This document shows, piece after piece, positions 6,986-27,537 of a DNA stretch of 64,000 nt (its first letter is position 1; the number at the start of each line of letters is the position of its first letter). Source of the DNA: Candidatus Collierbacteria bacterium (GTDB lineage: Bacteria > Patescibacteriota > Microgenomatia > UBA1400 > JACPES01). The stretch spans positions 13,726-77,725 of the forward strand of contig JACPES010000003.1 in the NCBI GenBank assembly GCA_016183365.1, in the 5' to 3' direction. The notes beneath the pieces are model-generated. The model made no database searches and was not told the DNA's origin. It saw only the letters and a list, made by a program, of their open reading frames with translations. The position numbers and the translations under genes are program-made.

Positions 6986-7030
6986 CAGCAATCCAACAAT
7001 CTAGCAATCTAGCAATCTGACAATCTAACA
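6981..7030. repeat. CAATCYA heptamer array running into the start codon of pilin gene 3
   Basis: CAATCCAGCAATCCAACAATCTAGCAATCTAGCAATCTGACAATCTAACAATG. Confidence 0.65.
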
Positions 7031-7830: not shown

Positions 7831-8219
7831 CATTGACAGACATTAAGGCCGGCAATATTGGCGGTTTGCCTGACGGCTACCAGGCTATGCCGGCCTCCGA
7901 CGCTCCGGCCACTTTGGAAAAAATAATTTCCAACACAGTCGGATTTTTTACCGTGGTTGGAGGCTTGACATTTATCATTTATATCGTTTTAGCCGGCTTA
8001 ACCTGGATTACTGCCCGGGAAGAAGATGCCAGACTATCAAAAGCCAAACAAATGCTCACCAACGCCCTGATCGGGCTGGCCCTGATAGTTGTTTCTTGGG
8101 CCGTGGCCGGAATAATCGGGACTATTTTTGGATTTGACATTTTAAACCCGGGAAAATATATTGAAATGATATCGCCTGGCGGGAGCGGCGGCGATGAACG
8201 AGAAAAAAGATCATCATGA
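7827..8219 (+). CDS. VirB2/TrbC-like pilin paralog 5
   Basis: FFTVVGGLTFIIYIVLAGLTWITAREEDARLSKAKQMLTNALIGLALIVVSWAVAGII. It overlaps its neighbours by 4 nt, consistent with an operon. Confidence 0.5.
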   Translation: MTLTDIKAGNIGGLPDGYQAMPASDAPATLEKIISNTVGFFTVVGGLTFIIYIVLAGLTWITAREEDARLSKAKQMLTNALIGLALIVVSWAVAGIIGTIFGFDILNPGKYIEMISPGGSGGDEREKRSS

Positions 8220-8617
8220 AACGAATCTTTTATTTATCTATTTGCCTATTTGTCTATTTGTCTATTCTGTCTGCCTCTGCCTATGCCGCCGGCATCACCA
8301 ATCCGGCTCTTGCGGACGATCTGGGGAGGGGGGATCCGGCGAATGTTTTTGGCCGGTTCGTGGGAAGCTGGTGGGGATTGGCGTATGTCATCGGCGGATT
8401 GCTGTTTTTGCTTTACCTGGTGTGGGGCGGAGTGGAATGGATCATGGGCGGTGGCAATAAAGACCGGATCGAAAGCGCCAAAAATAAAATTTCCAACGGT
8501 ATTTTAGGGCTGACCCTGCTGGCTGCGTCGTTCGCGTTGGTAAAGGCAATTGGATTTGTGTTGGGAATTGATTTATTGGAAACTTTGACTTTTGATTTAT
8601 CCAGACTGGCGCCGTAA
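8216..8617 (+). CDS. VirB2/TrbC-like pilin paralog 6
   Basis: Signal peptide MKRIFYLSICLFVYLSILSASAYA. Core is WWGLAYVIGGLLFLLYLVWGGVEWIMGGGNKDRIESAKNKISNGILGLTLLAASFALV. The signal peptide is partly encoded by a TCTATTTG repeat. Confidence 0.5.
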   Translation: MKRIFYLSICLFVYLSILSASAYAAGITNPALADDLGRGDPANVFGRFVGSWWGLAYVIGGLLFLLYLVWGGVEWIMGGGNKDRIESAKNKISNGILGLTLLAASFALVKAIGFVLGIDLLETLTFDLSRLAP

Positions 8618-9043: not shown

Positions 9044-9178
9044 TGATGTCTTGAAGGTGGAAGATGGAAGTCCTTGATCTTGAAACCTTGACGAATCACC
9101 ATCGAGGATTCAAGGTAGCAATCACATCAAGTTCAAAAACCTCAAGAGCATCCATCTTCAAAACATCTATTTCGTGGA
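9044..9178 (+). repeat. About 140-nt palindromic intergenic element, copy A (between pilin genes 7 and 8)
   Basis: Starts GATGTCTTGAAG...CTTGATCTTGAA.CCTTGAC and ends ...ATCAAGTTCAA.AA...CAAGAGCATCCATCTTCAAAACATC. The two ends are inverted repeats of each other. Confidence 0.6.
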
Positions 9179-12411: not shown

Positions 12412-13992
12412 TTGATGGACAAATTTTGTGATATGCTATTTGTAATGAAGCGCGTCTGCCGCCGGCTGACAACTATCTTAACTATCTTAACGATTCTGGC
12501 CCTGCTGCGGCCAGTCTTCGCCCAGGACATCAAGGAAAATCCCTATTGGCGCCAGAGCACCACTTCCCAAGTCCAGGAGGTTGAGGTGGGGCCGGAAAAC
12601 GAAGTCACCGCTCCCCGCTACACCTATTTCCAAACCAATACTACTTTTAACGCCATCAGCGCCGGAATTCTCGATCCCACCGGCCAAAATCAATCGGCAG
12701 CTGTGCCGCTATTGGGCCGGTCCATTGCCTTGCTTACCGGCCGGCCGCCGGTCCAAACCCATGAATATCTGGCGTATATGGCAAGCAAGGCTGGGTTTAT
12801 TGACCAGGCTTACGCCCAGTCAAGAGGCGGGTTTGAGGTCTTACAGCCGATTCAAAAATTATGGATTGCCACCCGAAACATAGCCTACTTGATCACTTCC
12901 CTAACTTTAGTAGTAATTGGATTTATGATCATGCTGCGGAAAAAAATCGACGCCCAGACAATTGTCGGGGTCGAACAGGCTTTGCCGAATTTGGTCATCA
13001 CCCTGCTTTTAATTACCTTTAGCTACGCCATTGCCGGATTTGTGATTGATATGATTTATTTCGTGTCGTTTTTTGGAATTAAATTGCTAGCCCTGAATAA
13101 CATTTTTGCTCCAGGAGACTACGGCAGTGCCGCCATTGAAACCATCAGAACTAAATCCATCTTCTCTATCGGCATCCGGGATCTATTCCGGATTGGCGGC
13201 ACCAGCGCCGGCTCGGCCGAAACCGCCGCGGACGCCGTCGGCAATTTAATCGCGGAATTATTGGGCGAGGGCAAACTGTTCGCGGCTACGCAAATAATTT
13301 CCCAGCCGATCGCTTACGTCATTTTCGCCGTCGCGATTTTGTTCGCGGTTTTTAAGCTGTTCTTTAGCCTTTTGATGGCGTATATCCAAATAATTTTATT
13401 GGCCATATTGGGGCCGCTGCAACTGATGCTCAACGCCTTGCCGGGGAGTGACGCATTTTCTAAATGGTTTAGAAATCTTTTGGCTAACGCCATGGCTTTT
13501 CCGGCTGCCATTATGATGCTGGTCTTCGCCGCCGCTCTGATGGGCCAAACCGGCGAACATTTTAGGATTGCCGACGACATTGGTTTTACCGATAGCGTAA
13601 GCGGGGTTAAATGGATCCCGCCCTTGGTTTTCGGAAGCGGGGCCGGAGCCACCAATCCCGTCGACGCGGTCATCGCCCTGATCGGAATCGGGATCCTGCT
13701 GATGACACCCAAGGTCGTGGATATGGTCAAAGAAGCCATCCAAGCCCCCGAATTCAAGTACGGCTCCGCCATCGGCGAAGCGGTTGGGTTTGGGTGGTCA
13801 CCAATTAAACGTGGTTGGGGAGCGGGAACCGACATAGCAAGACAAGAAAGACAATTCAGAGAACAAGCCAGAATTTGGGGCAAAGAAGATTTATCACCAT
13901 ATCAACCGCCAACAGGACAACAACCTACTCGCTGGACAGATTTGAGGGGTCGCCTCGGTGCATTTGGACGCCGATTTACGGGTTTGCAATAA
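12412..13992 (+). CDS. Polytopic membrane protein, VirB6/TrbL-like
   Basis: Signal peptide followed by at least six TM helices (e.g. LITSLTLVVIGFMIML and LVITLLLITFSYAIAGFVIDMIYFVSFFGI). It sits directly downstream of the pilin array. Confidence 0.4.
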   Translation: MMDKFCDMLFVMKRVCRRLTTILTILTILALLRPVFAQDIKENPYWRQSTTSQVQEVEVGPENEVTAPRYTYFQTNTTFNAISAGILDPTGQNQSAAVPLLGRSIALLTGRPPVQTHEYLAYMASKAGFIDQAYAQSRGGFEVLQPIQKLWIATRNIAYLITSLTLVVIGFMIMLRKKIDAQTIVGVEQALPNLVITLLLITFSYAIAGFVIDMIYFVSFFGIKLLALNNIFAPGDYGSAAIETIRTKSIFSIGIRDLFRIGGTSAGSAETAADAVGNLIAELLGEGKLFAATQIISQPIAYVIFAVAILFAVFKLFFSLLMAYIQIILLAILGPLQLMLNALPGSDAFSKWFRNLLANAMAFPAAIMMLVFAAALMGQTGEHFRIADDIGFTDSVSGVKWIPPLVFGSGAGATNPVDAVIALIGIGILLMTPKVVDMVKEAIQAPEFKYGSAIGEAVGFGWSPIKRGWGAGTDIARQERQFREQARIWGKEDLSPYQPPTGQQPTRWTDLRGRLGAFGRRFTGLQ

Positions 13993-14047: not shown

Positions 14048-16420
14048 TTAAATAGCTCTCGTAACTTTATGATAGTTTAAACTATTCGGTCCAAAATACT
14101 GCGGCGGGGCCAAACACAAGGAATGATCCGCACCCGCTCCGATTAATCCTTTCTTGGCCAACTTTTCTAGGTTCATTTGCAATACACCTTTTTGGTCACC
14201 ATTGATCAATCCCTCGTTTTCCATAAACTCATACAATTGAGACAAATGGTATAAACCAAATGGAATACGCCCAGCAAGCCAATGCATCGAAAATCTGTTA
14301 TGCCCATTCTGAGTGATAGCCTCATGAGTTTTTACCATCTTATCGACACGATTTCTTTCATCCCCTAATAAATTGGGGTTCTGTTTCATCTCGCTCAATG
14401 ATCGTCCAGCTTCACGGTATAATTCCGCAGTCGTAGCTGTATAAAATAAAGGTCTGCCGCTAGGACCAACTAAAAACCTTTCGGATTCATCTTCAACCCA
14501 CCAACATCCAATTTCTTTTAATGCTTTCTCAAATTCTTGAAGTTCAGCAACTTGTATATTTGCGGAAGCATCTGTAAACCAATCTTTAACCAGACGGTCG
14601 TAAGTAATTCCATCGGGAGCTACCTTTAACCCATTGCTCTTTACGAACTGCTTATAATCAAACATCAGGAAACGGCTTTCTTGATCATCTAATTTCCCAA
14701 CACAGTGCATCCGAGTAAGCCCCTTAAGCCAAAAATAAGTAAATGGAAGCGCCTGCTGATCCTCTGTGAAAGCAAAAAATTTACCTTGGTTATAACTATC
14801 TGCCAGGACCTTGGTTGCGGCTTTGGAAATTTCGATCGCCCTAACTCCCATAAGAAGCACTTGTTCTGGATTACTTTTATAACTCCTTTCACCCTTTGTC
14901 AGTTGTCCACCCCTCGCTTCTATAACTTTATTAACCATCTGTATCACCTCAGCAGTATCCAATACCTTCCCCGCGTAACGAACCCAATTATCAAAATCCC
15001 TTGATCCGATTTTAGACCAGTCAAATATTGCGATTCCTTTCTGGGATGCAAATTTAATCATGTTACGGAATCCTTCCTCGCCATTGTTTTGGCCAACCGG
15101 TAAACCAGAAACATTTCCTAAAATCTTATCCAAGAGGAGGAGGTGATAGATATTCAATTGTTCCTCGAGGGGCAATGTCGCAAAGTTCGCCTTTACGTGC
15201 TGTAATTCATTTGAAATTTGCGCATGCATCTGTACGAAATTAACTCCATTAAAAAGCGTTGAATGACGTTCGGCTCTCGTCTCCCACAGCTCCACCGGCC
15301 TCATATGATCGACTGGAATAAACGCGTATTCCGACACCGTATCCTCCATCTCAGCAGTTGTCATTCGACCGCGTCGCGCCTGTATTGTTGCCGCTAACGC
15401 AATATCAGATTCTCCTTCGCGTGGGCGATAAAGAAAAATATCTTTCAGCGCTTCAATTCGTCTTCTTGCCAAATTTACCTCCGCTGACGGTGCTCCTGGC
15501 GACGCTTCAAATAGACCCCAAAAATAAGATAGGGCATCTTTAGCGTATTTCGACACACCTCCTGGATAAATTGGCGTCAGGTTCGCTTCGGGCGCAATCT
15601 GCGCATCAATCATTCCATACTCTATAAAATAGCGAGCTCCAGGCATTTTCCTGGCATGAAATTCTCGGTGGCTGCCTTTCACTGTTTGCGTGTATTCAAG
15701 GACATCGTTAGTAATATGCAAGAACGCTTCGGCTCCATAAGCAATTGGCGCTAGAAAATCTTCCAACTGTCCTGTCGACTCAATCGGATATCCATTATAT
15801 GTCTGGTACTCTCCCCAACGGACGTTCAAAGACTCACGAGGAATTTCTAATTGATCTTCAACTAACTCATCAATGAGGTGTTTATACTTCGAGGCATGAC
15901 GACCAGGCGTATCGGCTTCTCGAAGCTGACGCGCCATTTCCGGCCTATAAGCCACTCTCCCCATTACATCAGCTAGTGAGAAATCAAGCGGGCGGTTGGC
16001 AAATTCTCCTTCAAGTCGAACCTTCATATCTTTTACGCCGACATAAGGAATAGCCGCAATATTATCGGGAGGAATAGGACTAACCATACCACGAATTTGT
16101 TCAAAATTCGTATATCCTTCAACATCCGAAATCGCCGCGACGTGAGCAACCAATCCGAGAAGAGATCCTATCCCAAGGGTACCAACGTGTTCTCCCCAAT
16201 CAATAGAACCAATGTCATTCGACGTAACCTGCGACCGGAGGAGTTGAAAACTTTGAGGATGTTTAGCAAGTGCTTTCATTAAGTGCCCTCGCATAAACTG
16301 CCCTCGTTCCCGAGGCGAAAGCGTCCTTGCATAATCCATAATTTCAGGAAGTTGATAATATCGGCCAACTCCAAACAACATCTGTTGAAGTAGCCCCATC
16401 ATATCTTCAGGACCTGGCAT
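14048..16420 (-). CDS. Hypothetical cytoplasmic protein (790 aa), last gene of a 4-gene operon
   Basis: Long intact ORF with no signal peptide or TM segment and no domain I can recognise. It lies 4 nt from the upstream gene. Confidence 0.5.
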   Translation of the reverse strand: MPGPEDMMGLLQQMLFGVGRYYQLPEIMDYARTLSPRERGQFMRGHLMKALAKHPQSFQLLRSQVTSNDIGSIDWGEHVGTLGIGSLLGLVAHVAAISDVEGYTNFEQIRGMVSPIPPDNIAAIPYVGVKDMKVRLEGEFANRPLDFSLADVMGRVAYRPEMARQLREADTPGRHASKYKHLIDELVEDQLEIPRESLNVRWGEYQTYNGYPIESTGQLEDFLAPIAYGAEAFLHITNDVLEYTQTVKGSHREFHARKMPGARYFIEYGMIDAQIAPEANLTPIYPGGVSKYAKDALSYFWGLFEASPGAPSAEVNLARRRIEALKDIFLYRPREGESDIALAATIQARRGRMTTAEMEDTVSEYAFIPVDHMRPVELWETRAERHSTLFNGVNFVQMHAQISNELQHVKANFATLPLEEQLNIYHLLLLDKILGNVSGLPVGQNNGEEGFRNMIKFASQKGIAIFDWSKIGSRDFDNWVRYAGKVLDTAEVIQMVNKVIEARGGQLTKGERSYKSNPEQVLLMGVRAIEISKAATKVLADSYNQGKFFAFTEDQQALPFTYFWLKGLTRMHCVGKLDDQESRFLMFDYKQFVKSNGLKVAPDGITYDRLVKDWFTDASANIQVAELQEFEKALKEIGCWWVEDESERFLVGPSGRPLFYTATTAELYREAGRSLSEMKQNPNLLGDERNRVDKMVKTHEAITQNGHNRFSMHWLAGRIPFGLYHLSQLYEFMENEGLINGDQKGVLQMNLEKLAKKGLIGAGADHSLCLAPPQYFGPNSLNYHKVTRAI

Positions 16421-16424
16421 AGCG

Positions 16425-17474
16425 TTATCCTCCGTTCCTTCCCAACATAGACTTTAAAACACGCAAAAGTATGCCAATGTCAGCTCCGGGAGGAATCAAT
16501 CCGATGTCAGGCGAAAAACCCAAAGCGTCATCTCTTCTGAGTCTTTCGTATAGATTGATTAATGATCCGTTCTGTTTTTCTAAATCATTTGGAAATTGAC
16601 CAACTAGTGTCTGTCTCAACTCAACAAGGAAATTAGCAGCAATCTGTTCACCTGTATTCTGTCGATCTGAACTAAGTTTTAGTACATTCTCTATCGCAAA
16701 TTGATGTTGAACCTCTTCACCTAAACGTAGTAATATAACACGCAGCTCGCTCCTATTTCCATTCCATGCCGATAAATTCCCAGAAAGTCGTCTGGGGTTA
16801 GCGTCAATTTCTTTTATCATGCTCTGTAGAGTGAGAAGTGTTCTGTTTTTATCTATTCCAAGATTTCGTTGAAGGCCAGCTAGCCACTGTTGCTGTTCTG
16901 ACGGAAGCCCTATACGCCAATCAGCCGGTTGAATAGCCGCCTGCGGTTCGGGCGGCGACGTCGCCGGACGGCGGGCCTCGCGGATAATTTCCTCAATCGG
17001 CCGCCTGTCGCCCCCGGCTTGAGCCGCCCTAATCGCTTCGTAAATTTTCCGATATTCTTCAAAAGTACAAAGTGGCTTCCCGCCAACCGTTATCTGTTCT
17101 CCGTCACCCAAATCCTTCTGCCGCTGGCTCTCGATATATTGACCTATCTTATCAAGATTTACCTGCCCCGCCATCCCCGCAAAATATTTCTCCACCGGAT
17201 CGACCCCCCCCCCTCCCCCCATCTCCTCCGGATTTGATTCGTCCACCTTTCCCGCCGCCCGCAATTGTTCCAGCGGAGTCGTCGCCGGCCCAAACATTTG
17301 TTCGACATCGGCAGGCCCCAAATCCCTCACTTCGCCAACTCCCGCGTTCGCCTCGTGATTAGTTCCAAGCTGCGGAGCTGTACCTTCCGCCAGTCCGGCC
17401 GGAAACTGTCCTACCGGTAGCCCCTCCGGTCTTTGTCCTGGTGATAATTGTTCTGTGTTCATCTGATCAGGCAT
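16425..17474 (-). CDS. Hypothetical protein (349 aa)
   Basis: Intact ORF with a Gly/Pro-rich N-terminal region; tightly linked to its neighbours. Confidence 0.45.
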   Translation of the reverse strand: MPDQMNTEQLSPGQRPEGLPVGQFPAGLAEGTAPQLGTNHEANAGVGEVRDLGPADVEQMFGPATTPLEQLRAAGKVDESNPEEMGGGGGVDPVEKYFAGMAGQVNLDKIGQYIESQRQKDLGDGEQITVGGKPLCTFEEYRKIYEAIRAAQAGGDRRPIEEIIREARRPATSPPEPQAAIQPADWRIGLPSEQQQWLAGLQRNLGIDKNRTLLTLQSMIKEIDANPRRLSGNLSAWNGNRSELRVILLRLGEEVQHQFAIENVLKLSSDRQNTGEQIAANFLVELRQTLVGQFPNDLEKQNGSLINLYERLRRDDALGFSPDIGLIPPGADIGILLRVLKSMLGRNGG

Positions 17475-17519
17475 TGAGAAGATTATAGCAATGTGAAGAG
17501 ATAGCTACAAACAGAAAAA

Positions 17520-18095
17520 TTACATCCCGTGATCCCTCGGCTCATAAACGGGATTAAAACATCTATGTCTACCCTGCGCAATCTGTTCAGCCAAGCGATT
17601 TTCGATCTTCTCAAGCAATGCCGGATCTTTCACCAAGAACAAATCACTTTTACTATTAACAATCACCGATGCTGCTTCTACCCAAATCTTATTCGGATTA
17701 TCAATTTCTAATTCAACTCCAAGTTTAGTTGTTGTTTCTCCTTCTCCCCTGTCTTTTTCCACAAAAAACCCAACTGTTTCGGCATGATACATTCCACCCT
17801 CTTTATTTTTAAGATCGTAACAATCTACAATCCCCTTTCGTATATGCAATTCGACTGCCGGATCAACCTCCTTAAGAACGCCCAAAACATCTACTAAAAC
17901 TCTTTGGACGCCGGTGGCCTCAAGGGCTTTTTTCCCTTTCTCAAATCTAACCTTTTCCAAGGCCTCTTGTTGTCGTGTTTTTTCTTGATACTCAATGAGC
18001 AATTTGCGCTGCTCCTCCTCCTGCAGCCGTAACTCCGCCGCCTTTTCAGCTTCAGCCCGCTGAATAATTTGTTGGACTTTCTCTTTAATACTCAT
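17520..18095 (-). CDS. Hypothetical protein (191 aa) with an N-terminal coiled coil
   Basis: N-terminus is rich in E, K and Q (AEAEKAAELRLQEEEQRKLLIEYQEKTRQQEALEK). Confidence 0.45.
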   Translation of the reverse strand: MSIKEKVQQIIQRAEAEKAAELRLQEEEQRKLLIEYQEKTRQQEALEKVRFEKGKKALEATGVQRVLVDVLGVLKEVDPAVELHIRKGIVDCYDLKNKEGGMYHAETVGFFVEKDRGEGETTTKLGVELEIDNPNKIWVEAASVIVNSKSDLFLVKDPALLEKIENRLAEQIAQGRHRCFNPVYEPRDHGM

Positions 18096-18129
18096 ATATA
18101 AAATAAAATTTCGGATTGTAAATACCGTC

Positions 18130-19245
18130 TTATCTTTCCATTCCAGCTAAAATGTCCACCATTGCCCTCTTAACATTTGTCTCGTTAGGCTGAGCGATTA
18201 GCTTTCCTCCAAGATTTGCTTCAACCGTTACATAGAGACCTAATTTACCATCAGTTTTCATCGTACTAAAACGAATGGCAAAAGTATCCCGGGAAGACTC
18301 TGGTAGATAAAATTCATCTCCTTCTTTGGCCGGATAAGAAAATCCAAAACATTTCTCTGCTAAATACTTAAAACACCTTTTTTGTGTAATCTCAATTGCG
18401 ATTTCATCTCTAAGACTAATGACGTTTTCAGGTGGGGTGTTGACAATAATATGCTGAGATAGTTCTTTCCCTGTATCTAAGAACGACATCGGCTGGCCAC
18501 AAAACGCCGTAATAGACAAGGTTGGCACCCCCTTGTTAACTCCTATGGCCTTTGCGGCTAAACGGTAAGGTGGCTTACTATCCATATCTTCGATAAAAAA
18601 ACCTTTCCCTGCAAATCTATTCGAACCATCGCTTGTTAGATAATTAGTCGACTCCGATATTAATTGCGGAACGTGTAATCTCTCTAAGGAATCAACTGAT
18701 TCTCTGCACATGGGCGAGTCTGCGCTAATTTTTTTTAATTTATTACTAATTATCTCCGGGCGTAACTGCGCCAAGGCTTCTTCTTGTTCTTTTTTCTTCT
18801 TCGCTTCAGCTTCACCCTCTCGCGTACTTCTCAATGCTTGCACCTCATCTATTAGAGATATTAGAGATGGCTCCGTTCCTATGCCAGCGAGGGGGATGGT
18901 CACCTCAGGTATTACTTGTTGTTTGCGTACGCGGATTTCTTCTAGTCTAGCCCTATAATCAGCAAGTAAAATATCTGCTCCTTGAACTTTCACCGTCTTA
19001 ACGCCGCGTTGTGTTTGCTCATCAGCCCACTGAAGAAATTTATTTGTTTGATCTGCTCCCGCCGTTTCGACTTTACCAAAGTAATCAGCAAATGGATCAT
19101 CTCCGCCGCCCATCGCTTTCGGATTAAAACCAATCTCGACGCCCGCAGCGGTAAGTCTAGCGAGCGCTTCAATTCCGGCAGCAGAACCGGAGCCAAGGTA
19201 GGGAAGATTTTCTTCTAATCTTTTCACTTTATACGAGTATATCAA
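18130..19245 (-). CDS. Hypothetical protein (371 aa), first gene of the operon
   Basis: Starts at a TTG at 19245. Its 5' region (19248-19294) is near-identical to 20716-20762. Confidence 0.45.
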   Translation of the reverse strand: MIYSYKVKRLEENLPYLGSGSAAGIEALARLTAAGVEIGFNPKAMGGGDDPFADYFGKVETAGADQTNKFLQWADEQTQRGVKTVKVQGADILLADYRARLEEIRVRKQQVIPEVTIPLAGIGTEPSLISLIDEVQALRSTREGEAEAKKKKEQEEALAQLRPEIISNKLKKISADSPMCRESVDSLERLHVPQLISESTNYLTSDGSNRFAGKGFFIEDMDSKPPYRLAAKAIGVNKGVPTLSITAFCGQPMSFLDTGKELSQHIIVNTPPENVISLRDEIAIEITQKRCFKYLAEKCFGFSYPAKEGDEFYLPESSRDTFAIRFSTMKTDGKLGLYVTVEANLGGKLIAQPNETNVKRAMVDILAGMER

Positions 19246-19247
19246 AC

Positions 19248-19294
19248 GAAGTCAAGTTTTGAAGTCCAAAAGCATTTTCGCCGTCCCGCCTCCG
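19248..19294. repeat. 47-nt shared 5' leader repeat, copy 1 (start of gene 18130..19245)
   Basis: TATATCAAACGAAGTCAAGTTTTGAAGTCCAAAAGCATTTTCGCCG matches 20716-20762 with 2-3 mismatches. On the coding (minus) strand it reads ...GCTTTTGGACTTCAAAACTTGACTTCGTTTGATATA and includes the TTG start. Confidence 0.6.
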
Positions 19295-19503
19295 ACCGAC
19301 TTCCCAAAAACGGCAATCTCCCCGCCCCGATCTCGGTCGCCTGCCTCCCTTCCGACAGCATCCCCGGTGTTGCTCCTTGTTCTATCTTTGACATATTATC
19401 CATAGGGCAGAAAAATCTTGACAACAATTATATCTTATGGTACATTATCCTTGTTCGTGACCCGCAAGGGTTGTGCGGATAAGACTTAAGCCGCAAGCGA
19501 GTT

Positions 19504-19731
19504 TTATTTCTTCAATCGCAGAAAATCCTCCACCGTCAATCTTGCTCTCTTAATTTGAGATCTAAGCAATCCCGGGGCTAATTCTTTATGATCTGGAATC
19601 GATAAAATCGGAAAACCCGGAGTCGGATGTTCTAAAATGATGTGACTCCCTGCCTGGCGCGCTCGACAATAACCTACTTTCTCAAAACGTTTGACCGCTT
19701 CTCTGCCGGAAATATTGCTTAATTGACCCAT
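19504..19731 (-). CDS. hicA: HicA-family toxin, intact
   Basis: QAGSHIILEHPTPGFPILSIPDHKELAPGLLRSQIKRARLTVEDF matches the HicA/YcfA family. Its start lies 4 nt after the hicB stop. Confidence 0.8.
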   Translation of the reverse strand: MGQLSNISGREAVKRFEKVGYCRARQAGSHIILEHPTPGFPILSIPDHKELAPGLLRSQIKRARLTVEDFLRLKK

Positions 19732-19734
19732 GCA

Positions 19735-19962
19735 TCAAATGGCGACTTGAATTCTGGTAAAACCGAGGTCTCCCACCGGAAACGTTTTTTCTGATTTTTT
19801 CTCCAGAACCTTCATGTAACCGTTAACCGCCTCTTTAATATTCTTAATCGCCTCCCGCTTGGTTTTCCCTTGAGACATGCAGCCGGGAAGACTGGGTATA
19901 TCAATTACGTATCCACCATATTCCAAATCATATTCAATATAAGCCTGAAATGATTTTTTCAT
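19735..19962 (-). CDS. hicB: HicB-family antitoxin
   Basis: YVIDIPSLPGCMSQGKTKREAIKNIKEAVNGYM is a UPF0150/HicB signature. Confidence 0.8.
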   Translation of the reverse strand: MKKSFQAYIEYDLEYGGYVIDIPSLPGCMSQGKTKREAIKNIKEAVNGYMKVLEKKSEKTFPVGDLGFTRIQVAI

Positions 19963-20039
19963 GGTTTAATCATATCATAATTTCAACCTTCATCTTCTGC
20001 CCCCGAATTCTCTTCCGCCCCCAACGCCGCTTGGCTGCC

Positions 20040-20105
20040 TACTGATAAAAGTTCTGATGATTTCATTTCTCCGTCAGGCATTAGGGAGATTATAGCAACG
20101 ATAGT
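20040..20105 (+). repeat. About 65-nt element upstream of a hicB gene, copy 1
   Basis: CTGATAAAAGTTCTGATGATTTCATTTCTCCGTCAGGCATTAGGGAGATTATAGCAACGATAGTC, compared with 21553-21618. The AGATTATAGCAA motif also occurs at 17481. Confidence 0.45.
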
Positions 20106-20274
20106 CTATTCCACGCAAAATCAATTTGAATTATGCTTTCAGGAACCAAATAGTGTCGTTAGCTCCTATAAAGATTACTTAAGTGGATTCTGGTAGTGGT
20201 GCCGTCAGTTCGTTTTCGTCGAGCTAGACGAAGAACTTCACGTCGGCAACGGCAAATTTATTACTTTCGTATTC

Positions 20275-20733
20275 CTATATAGCCGCATCAGTCCATTGGT
20301 TTTCTCTGATTACCTTTAACACTCTTTGGGGTCCACCTCTAGCCTTTACCCACTTTTCGATAGAGCCCTTAGTCCTCTCTGCTCTTTCTATTTCCTCCCA
20401 AGAGAGAGGAAGAGGAGCAACAAATGGTTCGTCGCCTGCGCCCATGTCGATTAATTCCTCTTGCTTGAAGTTACAAGTCGTTGGAATATATTGTTTCCAA
20501 CTAATTTTAACTGGAGGGGAAATTGCCTCGCGTAACCGAGACAACATCCATGTTGCTGTCTCGTCAGATACTCTTCCTGCCTTAACTTCTCCGTCTAAGT
20601 ATAAGAGGAATATTTTTGCAGGTAAACGAGAATTGGAATCAGGTTGCCAAATCTGATTTCCAAAAGAATCTAATGGATTAAATGTTTCACCTAGTGGCAT
20701 AGATATTACTATAACTATATCAAACGAAGTCAA
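20275..20733 (-). CDS. Hypothetical protein (152 aa)
   Basis: Starts at a TTG at 20733. It shares its 47-nt 5' leader and first codons with gene 18130..19245. Confidence 0.4.
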   Translation of the reverse strand: MTSFDIVIVISMPLGETFNPLDSFGNQIWQPDSNSRLPAKIFLLYLDGEVKAGRVSDETATWMLSRLREAISPPVKISWKQYIPTTCNFKQEELIDMGAGDEPFVAPLPLSWEEIERAERTKGSIEKWVKARGGPQRVLKVIRENQWTDAAI

Positions 20734-20762
20734 GTTTTGGGGTCCAAAAGCATTTTCGCCGC
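20716..20762. repeat. 47-nt shared 5' leader repeat, copy 2 (start of gene 20275..20733)
   Basis: TATATCAAACGAAGTCAAGTTTTGGGGTCCAAAAGCATTTTCGCCG. Confidence 0.6.
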
Positions 20763-20926
20763 CTCGCCGGCAACCGACAGCGGTTACAAAATGTTTCCAC
20801 CGCGCCCCTCGCGCCCTGCCCGCTCGCCCGCATTCAGCTCTGCTGATTGAGGCGTCGCCGCCAACGCCGCCATTCCTTGTCCCGGTTGCAGTTCTTTCAT
20901 ATCATTTTCACTCATAGGCAGCTCAT

Positions 20927-20955
20927 TGACAATTTTAACCTCTCGTGTTATATTA
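20927..20955 (+). promoter_or_regulatory. Sigma70-like promoter motif (TTGACA, 17-nt spacer, TATATT)
   Basis: TTGACA at 20927-20932, a 17-nt spacer, then TATATT at 20950-20955. Confidence 0.3.
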
Positions 20956-20966
20956 TATCCAATCAC

Positions 20967-20998
20967 GCCCCGCCGAAAGGCGGGGGCATTTTTTTTAT
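20967..20998 (+). terminator. Rho-independent terminator hairpin
   Basis: GCCCCGCCGAAAGGCGGGGGC followed by ATTTTTTTTAT. It overlaps the 3' end of the NYN gene on the opposite strand. Confidence 0.5.
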
Positions 20999-21540
20999 CC
21001 GGTTAATTTAACTCCTGACTGTTTCTCAAGTTTCTCGATAGAAATCTTATAAATTCCCCTGTTCATTCGATAAATCTCTCGTCCTAAATGTCCGTGCATG
21101 TAAACCACAATTACTTGCTTCTGTTTACCAATCAGCAGTTTATACAACGGCTCAAAGTCCCCATCTCCGGTAAAGAAAATAAATCCCTCAACCCCGTCTG
21201 CTAAATCCTTATGAACGTCAATACACGTCTCCATGTCAAAATCGCACTTGCGAAATTTGAATTTCCTTTTGGTAGTTTCGTCAAAAACCGTAATATATTT
21301 CACCGGTTTCGTCGTCACTTGAAAACTAATATTTTTCGCTTGGCGGATAAACGCTTTTGACTTCGGATGTTTATCTGTGCCAAAATAGAGATTAATTTTC
21401 CCGATTTGGGAATAAGTTTTCAAGTGAGCAAACAGCTTTTCCGGATCAACTTCCCGTTTTAAAGATTTACTCCACCCGTGGATATTCGCCCAATCAAGAT
21501 AGACAACTCAATTCCCTCGAAGTTTTAAAGCTTTAATCAT
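20995..21540 (-). pseudogene. NYN-domain protein with an in-frame TGA after codon 10
   Basis: Translation gives MIKALKLRGN-TGA-VVYLDWANIHGWSKSLKREVDPEKLFAHLKTYSQIGKINLYFG...GDGDFEPL, an NYN/LabA-type domain. The TGA at 21508-21510 is in frame. The ORF-track call begins only at the internal TTG at 21423. Confidence 0.45.
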
Positions 21541-21552
21541 ATCTTAATTCCC

Positions 21553-21618
21553 GCTGATAAAGTTCTGCTGATTTCATTTCTCCGTCGGGCAATTAAACAG
21601 ATTATAGCAATTAGCGTG
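21553..21618 (+). repeat. About 65-nt element upstream of a hicB gene, copy 2
   Basis: CTGATAAAGTTCTGCTGATTTCATTTCTCCGTCGGGCAATTAAACAGATTATAGCAATTAGCGTGC. It ends 14 nt before the hicB ATG at 21632. Confidence 0.45.
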
Positions 21619-21631
21619 CTATAGTAAACAC

Positions 21632-21889
21632 ATGAAGAAAACTGTTAAAGAACTTCAATTCAAGGTCATCATCGAACAAGACGCAGACAGCTGGTATGTG
21701 GCTTCGGTTCCGGAATTGGAGGGTTGCTACACCCAAGGGAAAACCGTCGAACAAGTTAGAGAGAGAATCAAAGAAGTTATCAAGCTGGTTTTAGAAACAG
21801 ATAAAACCGCGGTTAAAGCAAAACTTCAACATCCGATCTCAATACCGAGTTTTCTGGGAATTGAAGACGTCTCCGTTCAATATGCCTAA
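21632..21889 (+). CDS. hicB: HicB-family antitoxin
   Basis: KVIIEQDADSWYVASVPELEGCYTQGKTVEQVRERIKEVIKLVLE. Its stop overlaps the hicA ATG (ATGCCTAA). Confidence 0.75.
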   Translation: MKKTVKELQFKVIIEQDADSWYVASVPELEGCYTQGKTVEQVRERIKEVIKLVLETDKTAVKAKLQHPISIPSFLGIEDVSVQYA

Positions 21890-22105
21890 GCTTAGCCAAT
21901 CAGGGGCAAAGATTTAATTAAAATTTTAGAAAAACAGGGGTTTGTCCAGATTCGCCAACGCGGCAGTCACGCTAGGCTTGTCCATTCAGATGGCAGAAAG
22001 ACTAGCGTACCAATCCATTCTGGAGAAAAAGTCCATCTGGGATTATTGAGGAAAATTCTGCGCGACGCCGGCTTTTCTCCCGAAGAATTCAATCGGCTTC
22101 AATAA
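21882..22105 (+). pseudogene. hicA: HicA toxin disrupted by a frameshift
   Basis: Frame 0 reads MPKLSQSGAKI and stops at 21915. The +2 frame from 21896 reads PIRGKDLIKILEKQGFVQIRQRGSHARLVHSDGRKTSVPIHSGEKVHLGLLRKILRDAGFSPEEFNRLQ, a full HicA. The break is a single-base indel near 21893-21898. Confidence 0.65.
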
Positions 22106-22336
22106 ATAAATTGAATCCTACTGCCCGTCAGATAAAACCACAAACACCCGCCGTCTTCAATTACTTCAATTATTTAAATAATTGAAGTCCCAACCAATTT
22201 ATATAAAACAACTATCATTAACCGGAAATTTCTTAATCCATCAATCATGTAAATTGACTAAGCTATAGCTTAGTCAATTTACAACATAACCTTCAAACCT
22301 GGTAGCCTTTTTAACCTTTAACCTGTTAGCCTGTTC

Positions 22337-22974: not shown

Positions 22975-23060
22975 AAAAGGTTAAAAGGCTAACAGGCTAA
23001 AAGGTTAAAAAGGTTAACGGGTTAGAAAGGTTAGAAAAATTAAAAAGTTGAAAAGGCTGA
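22975..23060. repeat. Degenerate AAAGGTT/AAAGGCT tandem array (left flank of the four-helix-bundle gene)
   Basis: GGTTAAAAGGCTAACAGGCTAAAAGGTTAAAAAGGTTAACGGGTTAGAAAGGTTAGAAAAATTAAAAAGTTGAAAAGGCTGAAAA. The reverse complement of this array recurs at 23462-23570, 22290-22335 and 37093-37140. Confidence 0.6.
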
Positions 23061-23458
23061 AAATACAACAAACCATGCAAACCAATAAAGGATATTTTAG
23101 TATTGAGGACACCGGCACGTATAAATTAGCGCATAAAGCTGGAGCAATTGTATGGAACGAAGTCCAAAAATGGTCATGGTTGGCCAAACGAACCTTAGGG
23201 GCTCAATGGATTAATTCAACTGATTCCGTTTCTGCAAATTTAGTAGAAGGTTTCGGAAGATTCCATAAAAAGGATCGCGTTAAGTTCTACTATAACGCCA
23301 AAGGATCAGCATTAGAAAGCCTCGAATGGGCGCGAAAAGCAATAGAAAGAAAGTTAATCGACGAATCAAAGGCAAAAGAAATTATTGCAATCCTAGAACA
23401 GCTTCCTCGAGAGATAAATTTTCAGATAAAATATTCTATGGAGAAATTAAAGAAGTAA
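23048..23458 (+). CDS. Four-helix-bundle protein (23S rRNA intervening-sequence protein family)
   Basis: Signature WINSTDSVSANLVEGFGRFHKKDRVKFYYNAKGSALESLEWARKAIERKLI. Flanked by inverted arrays of AAAGGTT-type repeats (22975-23060 and 23462-23570). Confidence 0.65.
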   Translation: MKRLKIQQTMQTNKGYFSIEDTGTYKLAHKAGAIVWNEVQKWSWLAKRTLGAQWINSTDSVSANLVEGFGRFHKKDRVKFYYNAKGSALESLEWARKAIERKLIDESKAKEIIAILEQLPREINFQIKYSMEKLKK

Positions 23459-23559
23459 TTTTATTTTTTGAGCCTTTTCAACCTTTCTATCCTTCTAACT
23501 TTTCGGTTTTCTTTTTTAACCTTTTTGGCCTTTCCAGCCTTTTTAACCTTCTGACCTTT

Positions 23560-23862
23560 TTATCCTGCCTTCAAATACCCGTCCGCAAAGGCTTCCTGTG
23601 CCCGTTGCACGAGTTGGTCAATTGTCATTCCCGTCCTCTCCGCGAACAGCTCTTCCATCCGCTTTTTGGCCTGCTCCTCATCACCAATCGCTTCCACTTC
23701 TTTCATATCCTCTTCCGTCAAACTCGTCATTAAAGCCGCGTACACGTCCAAGGCCGACAATTTCGCCACCCCGGACAACAACTGCCCGACCTCTTCGTCG
23801 GTCTTTCCCTCGGTTTTAAGTTTGGCAAGCCAATCAGAAAAGACTGTTGTTGGTTGATTCAT
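23560..23862 (-). CDS. Small acidic helical protein (100 aa)
   Basis: Intact ORF, last gene of a 3-gene operon that overlaps the upstream gene by 4 nt. Confidence 0.4.
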   Translation of the reverse strand: MNQPTTVFSDWLAKLKTEGKTDEEVGQLLSGVAKLSALDVYAALMTSLTEEDMKEVEAIGDEEQAKKRMEELFAERTGMTIDQLVQRAQEAFADGYLKAG

Positions 23863-25166
23863 TTTATTACCGGCCCAATGACATTATTAAGCAAATTACT
23901 AGCAGCTTCAAGATCTCCCATATTCGCAGCCCGAATCGCTTGAGCTTCCGGACTATTAAAACCTCTCAAGGCTTCAACCGCTGCTCGTCCACCTTCAGTA
24001 TAAGTCGCTCCGCTGCCAGTCACCACTTTATCAATATTATCGAAAATCGGCCGCAGAGCGTCAGCTGCTGCTTTAATTGCTCCTTGGTTGAGATTATTAA
24101 CCTTATCTCCAATAGCCCTGAAAAGAACATTTGTTACTTCTCCGCGATGCGGGACATTTCCAATCATTTGATAAATCGCTTCTGAAATCGTGTGTTTTGG
24201 CATATTGGCCGCCAATTCCGCCACCGTCGGCCCCTGTTGCAGGGCTGCTATCCTCGCCACCTCGGCGGTTTGGGCAGCAGCTTGAGCCGCAGCTCCCTGG
24301 GCAGCTTCTGCCATTTCTCTCGCCTGTGGAGAAAGAACTACCGGCGACTGTGGCAAATTCGCGTCCGAAACCCTGTGATAATAATCTCCAATTTCGTTAC
24401 CGCCGTGGACAGGCATCGCAGGTGTCGGACCGCCGGGACCCTCTCCCGAACCACCACCTATCACTGCCGGCTGGGCGGCGGCATGTGCCTGAAACAAGCG
24501 GTCTAACCCTTCAGCGCCAACAATCCCAATCCCGGCCGAAGCGGATATTTGGGCAATTAACAATCCCGTTCCCCTTCTGGCCGCTGCTTCACGCGCCAAA
24601 CCGGCAAAGCGGGGATGAATCCTCTCGGCTTGTGATAATACCTCAAGAAATCCTTCTGCCAAAAACCCGCCGATCATTCCGCCGCCAACAAATAATTTCA
24701 GCGCCTGATGCAACTGCGGAACAGTTTCCCACAAGATTCCGGAAAATATCGCTGGTCCGAGCATCAGCGCTCCCTCTTTGGCCGCATTTTTCCAATCCAC
24801 ATCTCTTAACCAACCTACCAATCTATTTTGAATTCTTTCTTCAACTTCCTCTTCTGATTCACCGGCCGGAGAAATTATCACTTCTCCCATCGCCTCTTCC
24901 GCCGTCGGTTCGTCTAAAACCGGTTTTTCCTGAAGTTGCACGGACGGAAAAACTTCTTCTGCTCCGGCCGGCTCAAAAGTTAAACTATTCAAGCTCGCCA
25001 AAACCCCGCTTATATCCCATGCTCTGAAACTGTTCATTTCATCCGCGGACAAATCCGCAACCGACAGCCTTCTCGACTCTGCTGTCGGAACAAAATCCAA
25101 ACCTGCTCTTGCTTCCTGAAGACTTAATCCATCAAGTTGGGCCAACGCTTCCGGAGATAGGCTCAT
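23859..25166 (-). CDS. Ala/Gly-rich hypothetical protein (435 aa)
   Basis: Low-complexity A/G/E-rich protein with no signal peptide. Overlaps both neighbours by 4 nt. Confidence 0.4.
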   Translation of the reverse strand: MSLSPEALAQLDGLSLQEARAGLDFVPTAESRRLSVADLSADEMNSFRAWDISGVLASLNSLTFEPAGAEEVFPSVQLQEKPVLDEPTAEEAMGEVIISPAGESEEEVEERIQNRLVGWLRDVDWKNAAKEGALMLGPAIFSGILWETVPQLHQALKLFVGGGMIGGFLAEGFLEVLSQAERIHPRFAGLAREAAARRGTGLLIAQISASAGIGIVGAEGLDRLFQAHAAAQPAVIGGGSGEGPGGPTPAMPVHGGNEIGDYYHRVSDANLPQSPVVLSPQAREMAEAAQGAAAQAAAQTAEVARIAALQQGPTVAELAANMPKHTISEAIYQMIGNVPHRGEVTNVLFRAIGDKVNNLNQGAIKAAADALRPIFDNIDKVVTGSGATYTEGGRAAVEALRGFNSPEAQAIRAANMGDLEAASNLLNNVIGPVIK

Positions 25167-27173: not shown

Positions 27174-27537
27174 TCAAACCTCTCTTTTGTTTGTTTTGCT
27201 CGCCTCATCTGGTCCGCCACTATCCTCCGTCAGAACATAGAAAACCTTCGGCGCAGTCCCTACTTTAATTAAAATTCCAGCAGTAACCAATTTCTTTAGC
27301 TGTCGATGAATGGCAATACTCCCTATCCTTAGAAACTCTACCAAGTCGATGACTCTAGCCCGACTGTTCGCTTGGATAAAAATGTATGGCCGTCCCGCCT
27401 TTAAAAACGATTTGGTGATTTTTGGAATATTCATAAAGCCGGCTCAAGAAAAGCAATTGCAGGTATTCGCGGACCACTGTCGCGTCATTGGTCTTATATT
27501 GGCGGGAAAAAGGTGTTAATTGGGCCAGGGAAATCAT
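27174..27537 (-). pseudogene. AbiEii-like nucleotidyltransferase toxin, frameshifted and truncated
   Basis: One frame gives the N-terminus ...LYEYSKNHQIVFKGGTAIHFYPSEQSG then a stop. A second frame continues SRARVIDLVEF... (RxSxDIDL-like). The total is far shorter than a full AbiEii. It is adjacent to the abiEi-like gene. Confidence 0.4.

Follow-up and report, generated by a model that had tools for sequence, protein, structure and literature searches.

A tentative hypervariable cassette array with portable promoters attached to the type IV secretion locus of a Candidatus Collierbacteria genome

We analysed a window of 64,000 nucleotides from a Candidatus Collierbacteria bacterium (contig JACPES010000003.1; all positions are those of the window). 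The segment at ~14.0-22.2 kb is read here as a hypervariable cassette array attached to a type IV secretion system (T4SS) locus; taken as a whole, effector role included, this reading is tentative and is held with slightly less than even confidence. Five copies of a promoter plus 5' gene fragment lie head-to-tail between 21610 and 17474, and a different cassette is found behind each: an NYN gene, a 141-aa gene, hicBA, the 365/191-aa genes and an intact 349/790-aa gene pair. The layout looks like serial cassette capture. The T4SS setting proposed in the preliminary description is real, with T4SS_pilin genes (4574-5371, 7827-8219 and 8216-8617), an M23/NAGPA hydrolase gene (28166-31768), a PrgI-like gene (32845-34035) and a VirB4-type ATPase gene (34867-37092). 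The ORFs scanned in the window gave no recognisable homologue of the coupling protein, VirB8 or VirB6. The genes under study are the following:
12412..13992, plus strand: 526-aa polytopic membrane protein (p526), the fixed neighbour on which the 790-aa gene converges and a VirB6-position candidate
14048..16420, minus strand: 790-aa protein HYU89_01405, a large fast-evolving orphan, distal gene of a conserved pair
16425..17474, minus strand: 349-aa protein HYU89_01410; its N-terminus is disordered and rich in Gly/Pro/Ala/Glu, followed by a shared N-domain (residues ~31-150) and a variable C-terminus
17482..17490, minus strand: extended -10 promoter TGCTATAAT, of leaderless type, with the 349-aa gene starting (ATG) 7 nt downstream
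17520..18095, minus strand: 191-aa protein HYU89_01415, product of a cassette gene without known relatives, coiled-coil at the N-terminus and alpha/beta at the C-terminus
18130..19227, minus strand: 365-aa protein HYU89_01420, start GTG 19227; the N-domain (residues 1-105) is conserved and the C-terminal part divergent
20275..20700, minus strand: 141-aa protein HYU89_01440, start ATG 20700, an orphan cassette gene

Four minus-strand ORFs, first called at 371, 191, 349 and 790 aa, had been described as one operon. They are present at 18130-19245, 17520-18095, 16425-17474 and 14048-16420 with gaps of 34, 45 and 4 nt, and are probably not a single transcription unit because a second extended -10 promoter, TGCTATAAT, precedes the start of the 349-aa gene; in other contigs, the 365-aa and 191-aa genes also change neighbours. 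Tight coupling is limited to the 349-aa and 790-aa genes, which form a translationally coupled pair: the gap between them is 4 nt and GGAGG lies 8 nt upstream of the 790 ATG. The TGCTATAAT promoter and the start of the 349-aa gene recur at 20097 and 21609.

The four proteins have no match in Pfam, PHROGs, PADLOC or NCBIfam, and the orphan proteins matched no HMM library, PDB entry or known fold. This agrees with the earlier view that they lack recognisable domains, signal peptides and transmembrane helices, as no N-terminal signal-like segment and no confirmed transmembrane segment were found. The sole hydrophobic stretch belongs to the 790-aa protein (residues 79-100, Kyte-Doolittle 1.89) and is modelled inside a globular protein, with residues 84-98 forming a helix (AF2, pLDDT 71); a fold search with this model returned no match. 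The 790-aa protein has only 11 relatives (25-33% identity) among 1.84 billion representative proteins, and a search of GTDB representative genomes yielded no member of the 349/790 family.

The 349-aa and 790-aa genes lie tail-to-tail with a p526-like membrane gene in five other contigs (L011-13, L014 and L015). The membrane protein, which has at least six hydrophobic segments and no match in Pfam or PDB searches, shows 70-76% identity in L011-13, 56% in L014, 44% in L007 and 35% in L015, while the 790 and 349 genes reach 27% and 43%, respectively, in L011-13. The pair is thus the stable conserved core of the array and diverges far faster than the adjoining membrane gene. No orthologue in a housekeeping context away from a T4SS was found: wherever a contig extends far enough to reveal what lies downstream of a 790-family gene, the neighbour is the same membrane gene (contig L010 is too short for this). 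In L007 and L009, the 790 position is taken by non-homologous orphan proteins of 958 and 779 aa.

The N-terminal part of the 365-aa protein is conserved (N-domain HMM, E = 4e-60). In the alignment of its family, the N-domain has many invariant positions and the C-termini of P0010 and P0011 beyond it are unrelated; hhalign relates the family to that of the 349-aa protein (95% probability, E = 3.7e-8). Both families therefore share an N-terminal domain of ~100 aa joined to variable C-terminal parts; the similarity of the 141-aa protein to this domain is not significant. The 191-aa gene is absent beside the 365-aa homologues in L007, L008 and L016. As cassettes, the 365-aa and 191-aa genes are exchangeable, and their neighbours differ from contig to contig.

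On circumstantial evidence, the best reading of the orphan proteins is that they are probably T4SS substrates, effectors or host-interaction factors, and the array genes are plausible candidates for T4SS cargo. The proteins are soluble and acidic (pI 5.0-6.0), with neither a Sec signal nor a confirmed membrane segment, and in L008 one of the cassettes codes for an LPD3 domain (E = 1.2e-5, narrowly below the Pfam cut-off). LPD3 is found in the polyvalent proteins that conjugative elements and phages carry. A further hint is the 790 position itself, taken in L007 and L009 by the non-homologous orphans named above. The shared N-domain may act as a common recognition or docking module and, in the DIVERSIFYING-pressure step, the variable parts would be under diversifying pressure from the host. 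Function is the weakest step of the explanation, and we infer it from these features.

Alternatively, the 349-aa and 790-aa proteins, and perhaps the 365-aa family, could be lineage-specific cytoplasmic parts of the T4SS machine rather than secreted cargo, in the form of a substrate-recruitment platform or an assembly factor replacing components not detected in Microgenomates. Several T4SS components are reported to be extremely divergent or absent in Microgenomatia (PMC12102498). The lack of a recognised coupling protein, VirB8 or VirB6 among the window ORFs and the synteny and translational coupling kept by the pair beside the membrane gene would fit such a role. Machine parts, however, normally evolve in step with their partners, and the 27% identity in contigs where the membrane gene keeps 70%, the non-homologous large proteins occupying the same position in L007 and L009, the failure to find the family in GTDB representative genomes and the lack of an ATPase or other machine-like motif make this explanation unlikely.

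Further cassettes and a palindrome complete the segment:
19504..19962, minus strand: hicBA toxin-antitoxin cassette (hicB 19735-19962, hicA 19504-19731; Pfam HicA_toxin E = 9e-15, HicB_lk_antitox E = 1.7e-8)
20995..21423, minus strand: NYN-domain (LabA-like nuclease) cassette gene (Pfam NYN E = 4e-9)
22164..22187, no strand: CTTCAATTATTTAAATAATTGAAG, a perfect palindrome of 24 nt that lies at the array's distal edge

The palindrome CTTCAATTATTTAAATAATTGAAG is unique in the window (0 expected by chance). The same sequence occurs in L017, ~50 nt upstream of the promoter of a 365-aa homologue, and a variant is present upstream of the L018 homologue. Because the palindrome lies directly upstream of the 365-aa homologue in L017 and L018, the toxin-antitoxin and NYN genes look like later insertions between it and the 365-aa gene. 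This bears on a defence function, raised in the preliminary description, under which the segment would be a defence or toxin-antitoxin island that lies between the T4SS blocks by chance and the orphans would be new modules for anti-phage defence or addiction with no relation to secretion. Within 14-28 kb lie two hicBA modules, of which one is decayed, the NYN nuclease and an AbiEi-like gene, and cassette turnover with promoter reuse is typical of defence islands. That function has nonetheless gained no positive support and appears rather improbable: none of the five orphan proteins matches PADLOC, the 349/790 pair in L011-L015 lies beside the membrane gene with no toxin-antitoxin genes in the few kb assembled, and the toxin-antitoxin and NYN genes themselves have the appearance of late arrivals.

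The cassettes are preceded by short segments, which are remnants of gene starts except for one conserved intergenic segment:
19242..19432, minus strand: 5' remnant A, TATAAT (19432-19427), then a small ORF from ATG 19403 (MDNMSKIEQG..EIGAGRLPFLGS..)
19418..19501, minus strand: conserved intergenic segment of 84 nt, which precedes remnant A and also precedes a remnant in L008 (80% identity to L008 1910-1993)
19983..20099, minus strand: 5' remnant M2, TGCTATAAT (20097-20089), then ATG 20081 encoding MPDGEMKSSELLS.. (32 aa)
20784..20957, minus strand: 5' remnant B, TATAAT (20957-20952), then a small ORF from ATG 20915 (MSENDMKELQPGQGMAAL..)
21540..21610, minus strand: 5' remnant R0, TGCTATAAT (21609-21601), then a decayed start (ATG to TTG) encoding ..PDGEMKSAEL..

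The small upstream ORFs noted previously do exist, and their loosely similar peptides proved to be real homologues. In a shuffle test against full-length N-termini, z was 10.1 for remnant A (P0015; HMM E = 0.003), 9.4 for M2, 5.8 for remnant B (P0013) and 10.1 for R0. At the DNA level, the match to the full-length gene of L009 has 90-93% identity and ends at breakpoints: remnant A is 93% identical at 19331-19303 to L009 98-126, M2 93% over 58 nt to the start of the gene and R0 90% over 62 nt. The ORFs are truncated 5' ends of 349-family genes, each keeping its own TGCTATAAT or TATAAT promoter, and remnant-plus-cassette units of a similar kind are present in L008 and L016. Were they instead functional small proteins or leader peptides, acting for example in translational coupling, one could account for the promoter-like TATAAT and ATG at each ORF, the retained N-terminal motif M-x-D-x-M-K-x-E-L and the stop of the L008 small ORF overlapping the ATG of the next gene. 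However, lengths and C-terminal ends are wholly different, the likeness to full-length genes breaks off sharply at the breakpoints, one copy has lost its start codon and no such ORF lies upstream of the same promoter element in L007, L017 and L018; small functional proteins are thus very improbable.

Two of the cassettes are preceded by copies of a longer repeat:
19238..19300, minus strand: 63-nt repeat copy A, TTGACTT and extended -10 TGATATACT (19244-19236), 8 nt before GTG 19227
20716..20778, minus strand: 63-nt repeat copy B, extended -10 TGATATAGT (20722-20714), 13 nt before ATG 20700

The near-identical sequences of 47 nt reported upstream of the two genes are not due to chance, but copy A, given as 19248-19294, was placed ~10 nt off and the full length is 63 nt (89% identity; 2 mismatches between the 45-nt cores, with 0 such matches expected from 100 shuffles). 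The TTG starts assigned at 19245 and 20733 sit within the promoter sequence and are replaced by GTG 19227 and ATG 20700: homologues of the 365-aa protein all start MKRLEEN..., matching GTG 19227, and the NCBI annotation gives 365 aa, not 371, for this gene and 141 aa from ATG 20700 for the second. With these starts, both coding regions begin downstream of the whole repeat, whose 3' end forms an extended -10 element, TGaTATACT, 8-13 nt before the start codons. The seven homologous upstream elements have an invariant core TTGACTT-N5-TGnTATACT at a fixed 8-nt distance to the GTG. By its sequence, the repeat is a portable promoter, that is, DNA upstream of the transcript start. The position of the core 8 nt (13 nt in copy B) before the start therefore predicts leaderless or near-leaderless mRNAs. 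This layout is the usual promoter arrangement in this genome, where a genome-wide scan for TGnTAYAnT returned 17 sites; at no fewer than 9 of them, a long ORF begins 6-13 nt further downstream.

A structured 5' leader co-regulating both genes post-transcriptionally, suggested by the near-identical sequence directly upstream of two genes and by an inverted repeat TTTTGG..CCAAAA in 4 of the 7 copies, is the least probable of the alternatives: the proposed TTTTGGAC..CAAAA hairpin folds no better than shuffled sequences (z = -0.26 and +0.07), is missing from three of the seven homologous copies (L007, L017 and L018) while TTGACTT-TGnTATACT never varies, is placed upstream of the -10 and hence outside any transcript begun there, and an Rfam search returned nothing. 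The earlier proposal of a shared regulatory leader or a recombination-derived duplication was essentially right on both counts, except that the shared element is a promoter, at recombination junctions that follow truncated gene starts, and not an RNA leader.

Under serial capture, repeated recombination in the conserved promoter and 5' coding region would have brought in new cassettes. Each insertion would have duplicated this region and left an orphaned gene start, which may now provide the promoter for the captured gene. The duplicated promoter and gene start before every cassette points to homologous rather than site-specific recombination. This differs from integron gene-cassette arrays; the likeness to integrons lies in the head-to-tail arrangement of unrelated promoter-less cargo (toxin-antitoxin modules, a nuclease, orphans) at one fixed site, and neither an integrase nor attC-type sites were found at 14-28 kb among the ORFs scanned. 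The promoters resemble extended -10 (TGnTATAAT) leaderless promoters in having TG-n-TATA(C/A)T with no properly spaced -35 and a start codon 6-13 nt downstream with no Shine-Dalgarno sequence, but the invariant TTGACTT is merely 5 nt upstream of the TG, which is not the sigma-70 -35 position.

Polymorphic toxin/effector loci (Rhs, CDI and related), said to have been described by Zhang, Aravind et al. in 2012, reportedly carry displaced 'orphan' modules. Like the array, they join one conserved domain to unrelated variable parts, replace cassettes repeatedly by recombination in the conserved part, leaving tandem orphaned fragments, diverge fast and lie beside a secretion apparatus. In contrast, the conserved part and orphan fragments are here 5' (N-terminal) and include the promoter, whereas the displaced pieces of Rhs/CDI loci are toxin-immunity modules from the 3' end. 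The array has no known domain for toxicity, immunity or trafficking, and some captured cassettes (hicBA, NYN) are outside the family altogether. The T4SS bacterial-killing effectors of Xanthomonadales (X-Tfe, with an XVIPCD domain) and their immunity proteins, reportedly the work of Souza et al. in 2015, are likewise T4SS-linked soluble proteins in which a single conserved recognition domain is joined to varied effector parts, and a small gene frequently lies next to theirs; the array proteins are putative counterparts. XVIPCD is C-terminal and recognised by VirD4, whereas the domain in the array is N-terminal and of unrelated sequence (no Pfam match), and no VirD4 was found among the ORFs scanned in the window.

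A further related setting is that of the chromosomal MPF-FATA T4SS near dnaA in Patescibacteria (CPR), described without relaxases (PMC12102498). The window holds the same components (VirB2-like pilin arrays, PrgI/VirB3-like, VirB4, peptidoglycan hydrolases), likewise with dnaA and dnaN close by and no relaxase. The 349, 790 and 365 families match no profile used here and fall outside the components described there; the sections of that survey covered here catalogue machine components and list no substrates. The role of the CPR T4SS has been called 'completely unknown', effector delivery being merely speculated (PMC11665869), and the array offers candidates for its cargo.

The window is chromosomal and lies near the replication origin, with dnaA at 38504-39931 and dnaN at 37189-38271; housekeeping genes come next (YidC, TsaC/TsaE, TsaD, a class I tRNA synthetase and GroEL). 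Among them, one 366-aa gene at 47757-48857 (+) encodes both the Sua5/TsaC and the TsaE domain as a fusion, with tsaD after it, a compact arrangement for t6A synthesis. Six Logan contigs (L001-L006) are 100% identical to the window DNA, with no strain variation among them, and the 790-aa protein is identical to HYU89_01405 (Candidatus Collierbacteria bacterium; CPR, Microgenomates). The T4SS context reported in the preliminary description was borne out, and the locus is organized as follows:

4574-8617: three T4SS_pilin genes
12412-13992 (+): 526-aa polytopic membrane protein
14048-16420 (-): 790-aa orphan protein
16425-17474 (-): 349-aa orphan protein
17520-18095 (-): 191-aa orphan protein
18130-19227 (-): 365-aa orphan protein
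20275-20700 (-): 141-aa orphan protein
28166-37092: PrgI/VirB3-like gene, VirB4-type ATPase and 1200-aa M23/NAGPA hydrolase

This arrangement matches the layout given for Patescibacteria T4SS loci in PMC12102498: MPF-FATA-like, close to dnaA, with pilin arrays and without a relaxase. The 526-aa neighbour has at least six hydrophobic segments, directly follows the pilin genes and a 954-aa secreted protein and, like VirB6/TrbL, is a polytopic inner-membrane protein encoded inside the T4SS gene block. Against the VirB6/TrbL/PrgH profiles it gave no Pfam match even at E <= 1, and it has no PDB sequence match; the same source describes VirB6 as seldom detectable in Microgenomatia (PMC12102498). Several other features were observed around the T4SS blocks. 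The 265-aa T4SS_pilin-domain gene at 4574-5371 contains a 96-nt perfect direct repeat (4738-4833 and 4897-4992, 159 nt start to start), which is a recent internal duplication. Two intergenic sequences of ~120 nt (9045-9168 and 34026-34166; repeats D8 and D10), 81-86% identical, precede the 954-aa gene and the 230-aa/VirB4 genes, lie upstream of genes in both T4SS blocks, and may be a shared regulatory region coordinating them. Two more orphan proteins of 435 and 626 aa, rich in Ala/Pro/Glu and without a match in any library, are encoded by overlapping genes at 23859-27043 (-), in the interval from the array to the second T4SS block; they too may be T4SS-associated proteins specific to the lineage. 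An AbiEi-type antitoxin gene (27534-28100, -; PADLOC E = 1.6e-33) separates the T4SS hydrolase block from the 626-aa gene, and a solitary gene of the 23S rRNA intervening-sequence protein family (PF05635, E = 4e-16) is present at 23048-23458 (+) with no rRNA nearby.

The open reading frames of the four packed orphan genes and the gaps of 34, 45 and 4 nt between them are as first described. Their designation as a four-gene operon was not supported. The 349 and 790 genes are predicted to be translationally coupled (GGAGG 8 nt upstream of the 790 ATG, gap of 4 nt), and the 191-aa gene was not found beside 365-aa homologues elsewhere; the group is therefore better seen as one conserved pair accompanied by exchangeable cassettes and served by two or more promoters. 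In contigs L011-13 (Rifle groundwater), L014 and L015, a 790-family gene also converges on a homologue of the 526-aa membrane gene, and a 349-family gene precedes it recognisably in L011-13, probably in L014 and not recognisably in L015. Identity of L011-13 to the window is 70-76% for the membrane protein compared to 43% for the 349 protein and only 27% for the 790 protein, which indicates that the pair is kept in position while evolving very fast. In L007 and L009 the 790 position is occupied by proteins of 958 and 779 aa; homology of the 790-aa protein to them was not significant (z = 1.0-2.2). Despite high divergence, the 790-aa family has four nearly invariant motifs, EHAR(K), GE(S/A)D, SSGRPL and GHNRFS (residues 254-258, 336-339, 653-658 and 706-711), in which no known catalytic signature was recognised.

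The five orphan proteins have no match in Pfam, PHROGs, PADLOC or NCBIfam, and PDB sequence-profile searches with three family alignments gave none. Relatives were absent from the GTDB representative genomes and JGI metagenomes scanned, and tblastn found none in plasmids, queried with the 790-aa and 191-aa proteins, or in phages, queried with the 365-aa and 191-aa proteins. The 365-aa family comprises seven relatives at 40-55% identity. Its N-terminal domain of ~105 residues is strongly conserved (LPYLGSGS.AG.EAL.RL...GVEIGF....MGGG.DP...YF...W...G..V.QG..L..Y..RLEEIR); beyond residue 105 the aligned sequences are divergent or wholly unrelated, the C-termini of P0010 and P0011 being unrelated to the rest. 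Profile comparison shows the same domain in the 349 family (hhalign probability 95%, E = 3.7e-8), so that the two families share it at the level of sequence. Similarity of the 141-aa protein to the N-domain, which would make it a truncated member, was not significant (z <= 2.6), and the structure model of the 365-aa protein was too poor for use (pLDDT 52.7).

The orphan proteins could serve the T4SS as substrates or effectors, or be host-interaction factors of it, in which case the shared N-domain would be a docking module common to them. They are soluble and acidic and have no Sec signal; a known secretion signal or domain (e.g. XVIPCD, BID or a C-terminal charged tail motif) was not matched in Pfam-A at E <= 0.1 for any of the five. 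What ties their genes to the T4SS is genomic adjacency. That adjacency, with the conserved position of the 349/790 pair, would also suit lineage-specific parts of the T4SS machine, which we consider unlikely, given the non-homologous proteins at the 790 position. Still less probable is that the genes are unrelated defence or toxin-antitoxin (TA) island cargo. The array does contain adjacent genes matching HicA_toxin (E = 9e-15) and HicB_lk_antitox (E = 1.7e-8); PADLOC matched none of the five orphan proteins, its only nearby matches being NYN (weak) and AbiEi. No toxin domain with a cognate immunity gene was found for them in Pfam, NCBIfam, PHROGs or PADLOC, and the 191-aa neighbour is not kept beside homologues.

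Relatives of the 349-aa protein are few (P0013-P0015 and contig L012), and their N-termini, MPDGEMKSSELLS.GRGPAEIGAGGLPFLGSG..., match short stretches of the array, which is closed at its distal edge by a palindrome:

19403-19242 (-): remnant, small ORF; matches P0015 (z = 10.1)
20081-19983 (-): remnant, small ORF before hicBA; matches P0015 (z = 9.4)
20915-20784 (-): remnant, small ORF; matches P0013 (z = 5.8)
~21593: remnant, decayed copy before the NYN gene, ATG changed to TTG; matches P0015 (z = 10.1)
22164-22187: perfect 24-nt palindrome CTTCAATTATTTAAATAATTGAAG, unique in the window

Window positions 20099-20042 are 93% identical at the DNA level to L009 where its full-length gene has its promoter and initial codons, and positions 19331-19303 are 93% identical to L009 98-126; similarity ends thereafter in both cases. 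Every 5' fragment retains TGCTATAAT or a TATAAT element. As the small ORFs match 349-family starts and keep promoters, five head-to-tail copies of a promoter plus 349-family gene start can be traced from 21610 to 17474. Only the fifth belongs to an intact gene, that for the 349-aa protein; the other four are truncated and precede NYN, the 141-aa gene, hicBA and the 365/191-aa genes. Units of the same kind occur in L008 (small ORF, then an LPD3-like gene, then another fragment) and in L016. These alignments identify the small ORFs as remnants and establish a tandem array. That the small ORFs are functional genes is very unlikely; three copies still present a reading frame, and the fourth has lost its ATG.

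The array would have arisen most simply if recombination took place again and again in the conserved stretch of promoter and 5' sequence, and if each such event left a copy of that stretch on either side of an incoming cassette. Neither an integrase nor attC-like sites were seen among the ORFs scanned, and no recombinase among those scanned at 12-28 kb; the IntI tyrosine recombinase with attI/attC that marks an integron was not found, and the repeats present are promoter and 5'-coding duplications. The palindrome recurs directly upstream of the 365-aa homologue in L017 (1-24), with a variant in L018 (~37-100), which points to later insertion of the TA, NYN and 141-aa cassettes in the present genome. 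The palindrome could act as a terminator, or be a boundary or a landmark for recombination. Next to it, what looks like a decaying TA module occupies 21632-22100 (+) at the array edge: behind another hicB-like gene (21632-21889) stands a hicA in which a 1-nt shift interrupts the reading frame close to the start (MPKLSQSG|AKDLIKILEKQGF...). The LPD3-like small gene of L008 (1453-1884) is a cassette behind a 5' remnant and matches Pfam LPD3 at E = 1.2e-5, just below the cut-off; a fragment just upstream of the 349-family gene in L012 (3-248) resembles it by eye only.

The near-identical leader reported before the first gene and the 141-aa gene is genuine (45-nt core with 2 mismatches, compared to 0 expected by chance); its coordinates before the first gene were ~10 nt off, and the repeat is longer than claimed, 63 nt at 89% identity (19238-19300, copy A, and 20716-20778, copy B; repeat D5). 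The TTG start codons attributed to it were artefacts of taking the longest ORF. The true start of the first gene is GTG 19227, as all homologues begin MKRLEEN... and the NCBI annotation gives 365 aa; the second gene is annotated at NCBI as 141 aa from ATG 20700. Both coding regions thus begin downstream of the entire repeat. Upstream sequences of five further 365-aa-gene homologues (L007, L008, L016, L017 and L018) were aligned with it, and all seven copies share an invariant core of TTGACTT, 5 nt, TG-n-TATACT, 8 nt and GTG. The motif TG-n-TATA(C/A)T is an extended -10 promoter motif, found here at:

19244-19236 (-): TGATATACT
20722-20714 (-): TGATATAGT
17490, 20097 and 21609: TGCTATAAT

In six copies the -10 stands 8 nt before a GTG start; in copy B the distance is 13 nt, to an ATG, and at the 349 gene it is 7 nt. 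The whole window contains 17 extended -10 motifs, and at least 9 have a long-ORF start codon 6-13 nt downstream, without a Shine-Dalgarno (for instance hicB at 21632, a SpoIID-domain gene at 3961 and ORFs at 41732 and 46489); this spacing suggests that genes of this genome are as a rule transcribed from such promoters, leaderless or nearly so. In its 3' half the 63-nt repeat is, by its motif and spacing, one of these promoters. Pairing TTGACT as -35 with TATAAA as -10 was rejected because it would place the transcript start inside conserved coding sequence; TTGACTT, which lies just 5 nt from the TG of the extended -10, may be a binding site for a regulator. An RNA leader, suggested by the conserved repeat and a small hairpin noted in it, is hardly credible, as the hairpin folds no better than shuffled sequence (z = -0.26 and +0.07) and is missing from 3 of 7 homologous copies. 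Rfam and tRNA scans of the window were empty.

Other intergenic repeats were seen in the window. Units of 8-9 nt (ACAATCTA-like and TAACCATT-like) form short tandem runs directly upstream of genes in many intergenic regions and may be a genome-wide upstream element. Dispersed 50-63-nt copies contain the palindrome CCTGCAAAGCAGG and GGCTCTGCCAGA. Together with a second inverted pair, of 31 nt, they resemble intergenic repeats of the MITE or REP type; in L018 an insert related to them splits the 24-nt palindrome.

6972-7041, 40559-40612, 47714-47767 and 57657-57712; also 1364-1429, 23504-23560, 40190-40245 and 48850-48906: 8-9-nt-unit runs
6929-6993, 47667-47716 and 58276-58338: dispersed 50-63-nt copies
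41492-41522 and 57426-57456: 31-nt inverted pair

In conclusion, the locus is real and unusual. The initial intuition of a recombination-derived duplication carrying regulatory sequence stood, in the form of promoters with truncated gene starts; T4SS cargo is possible only. We tentatively propose, as a doubtful reading, that the ~100-aa N-domain is a previously unrecognised CPR T4SS recognition/translocation module and that the locus is a dedicated cassette-exchange site for polymorphic effectors injected by the episymbiont into its host, among them the 790-aa family and the non-homologous proteins that replace it. The case for substrates, effectors or host-interaction factors of the T4SS is circumstantial, since it draws on position, evolutionary rate, polymorphic architecture and the LPD3-like cassette; it also leans on the absence of any known cargo for CPR T4SSs (PMC11665869). 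T4SSs are widespread in CPR/Patescibacteria and essential in the sole species tested, a Saccharibacterium; their function is described as 'completely unknown', with effector delivery only a matter of speculation (PMC11665869, PMC12102498). If the cargo reading is true, the orphan proteins would be the first candidate cargo of the CPR secretion system. A fast-evolving gene set restricted to this lineage and fixed beside a T4SS membrane gene, in which an N-terminal module is shared and past cassette exchange can still be read, provides concrete candidates, and the N-domain with the promoter/5' fragment offers a sequence handle for finding T4SS cargo in uncultivated episymbionts. Duplicated promoter-plus-gene-start fragments, each driving a captured gene, would be an unusual, integrase-free mode of gene capture and expression.

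Among known systems the array comes closest to the X-Tfe effectors of Xanthomonas and to polymorphic toxin loci that carry orphan modules. As in polymorphic toxin/effector systems, a conserved domain is joined to variable, unrelated C-termini within one family (the 365-aa family, the domain being also present in the 349 family), and displaced orphan fragments are found, here four truncated 5' starts and one intact gene start in tandem. In contrast, the orphan fragments are 5' here and 3' in classical polymorphic toxin loci, the array has no toxin or immunity domains, and, unlike X-Tfe effectors, its proteins have no XVIPCD domain. By analogy, the array may work like polymorphic toxin loci or X-Tfe, while being a member of neither family.
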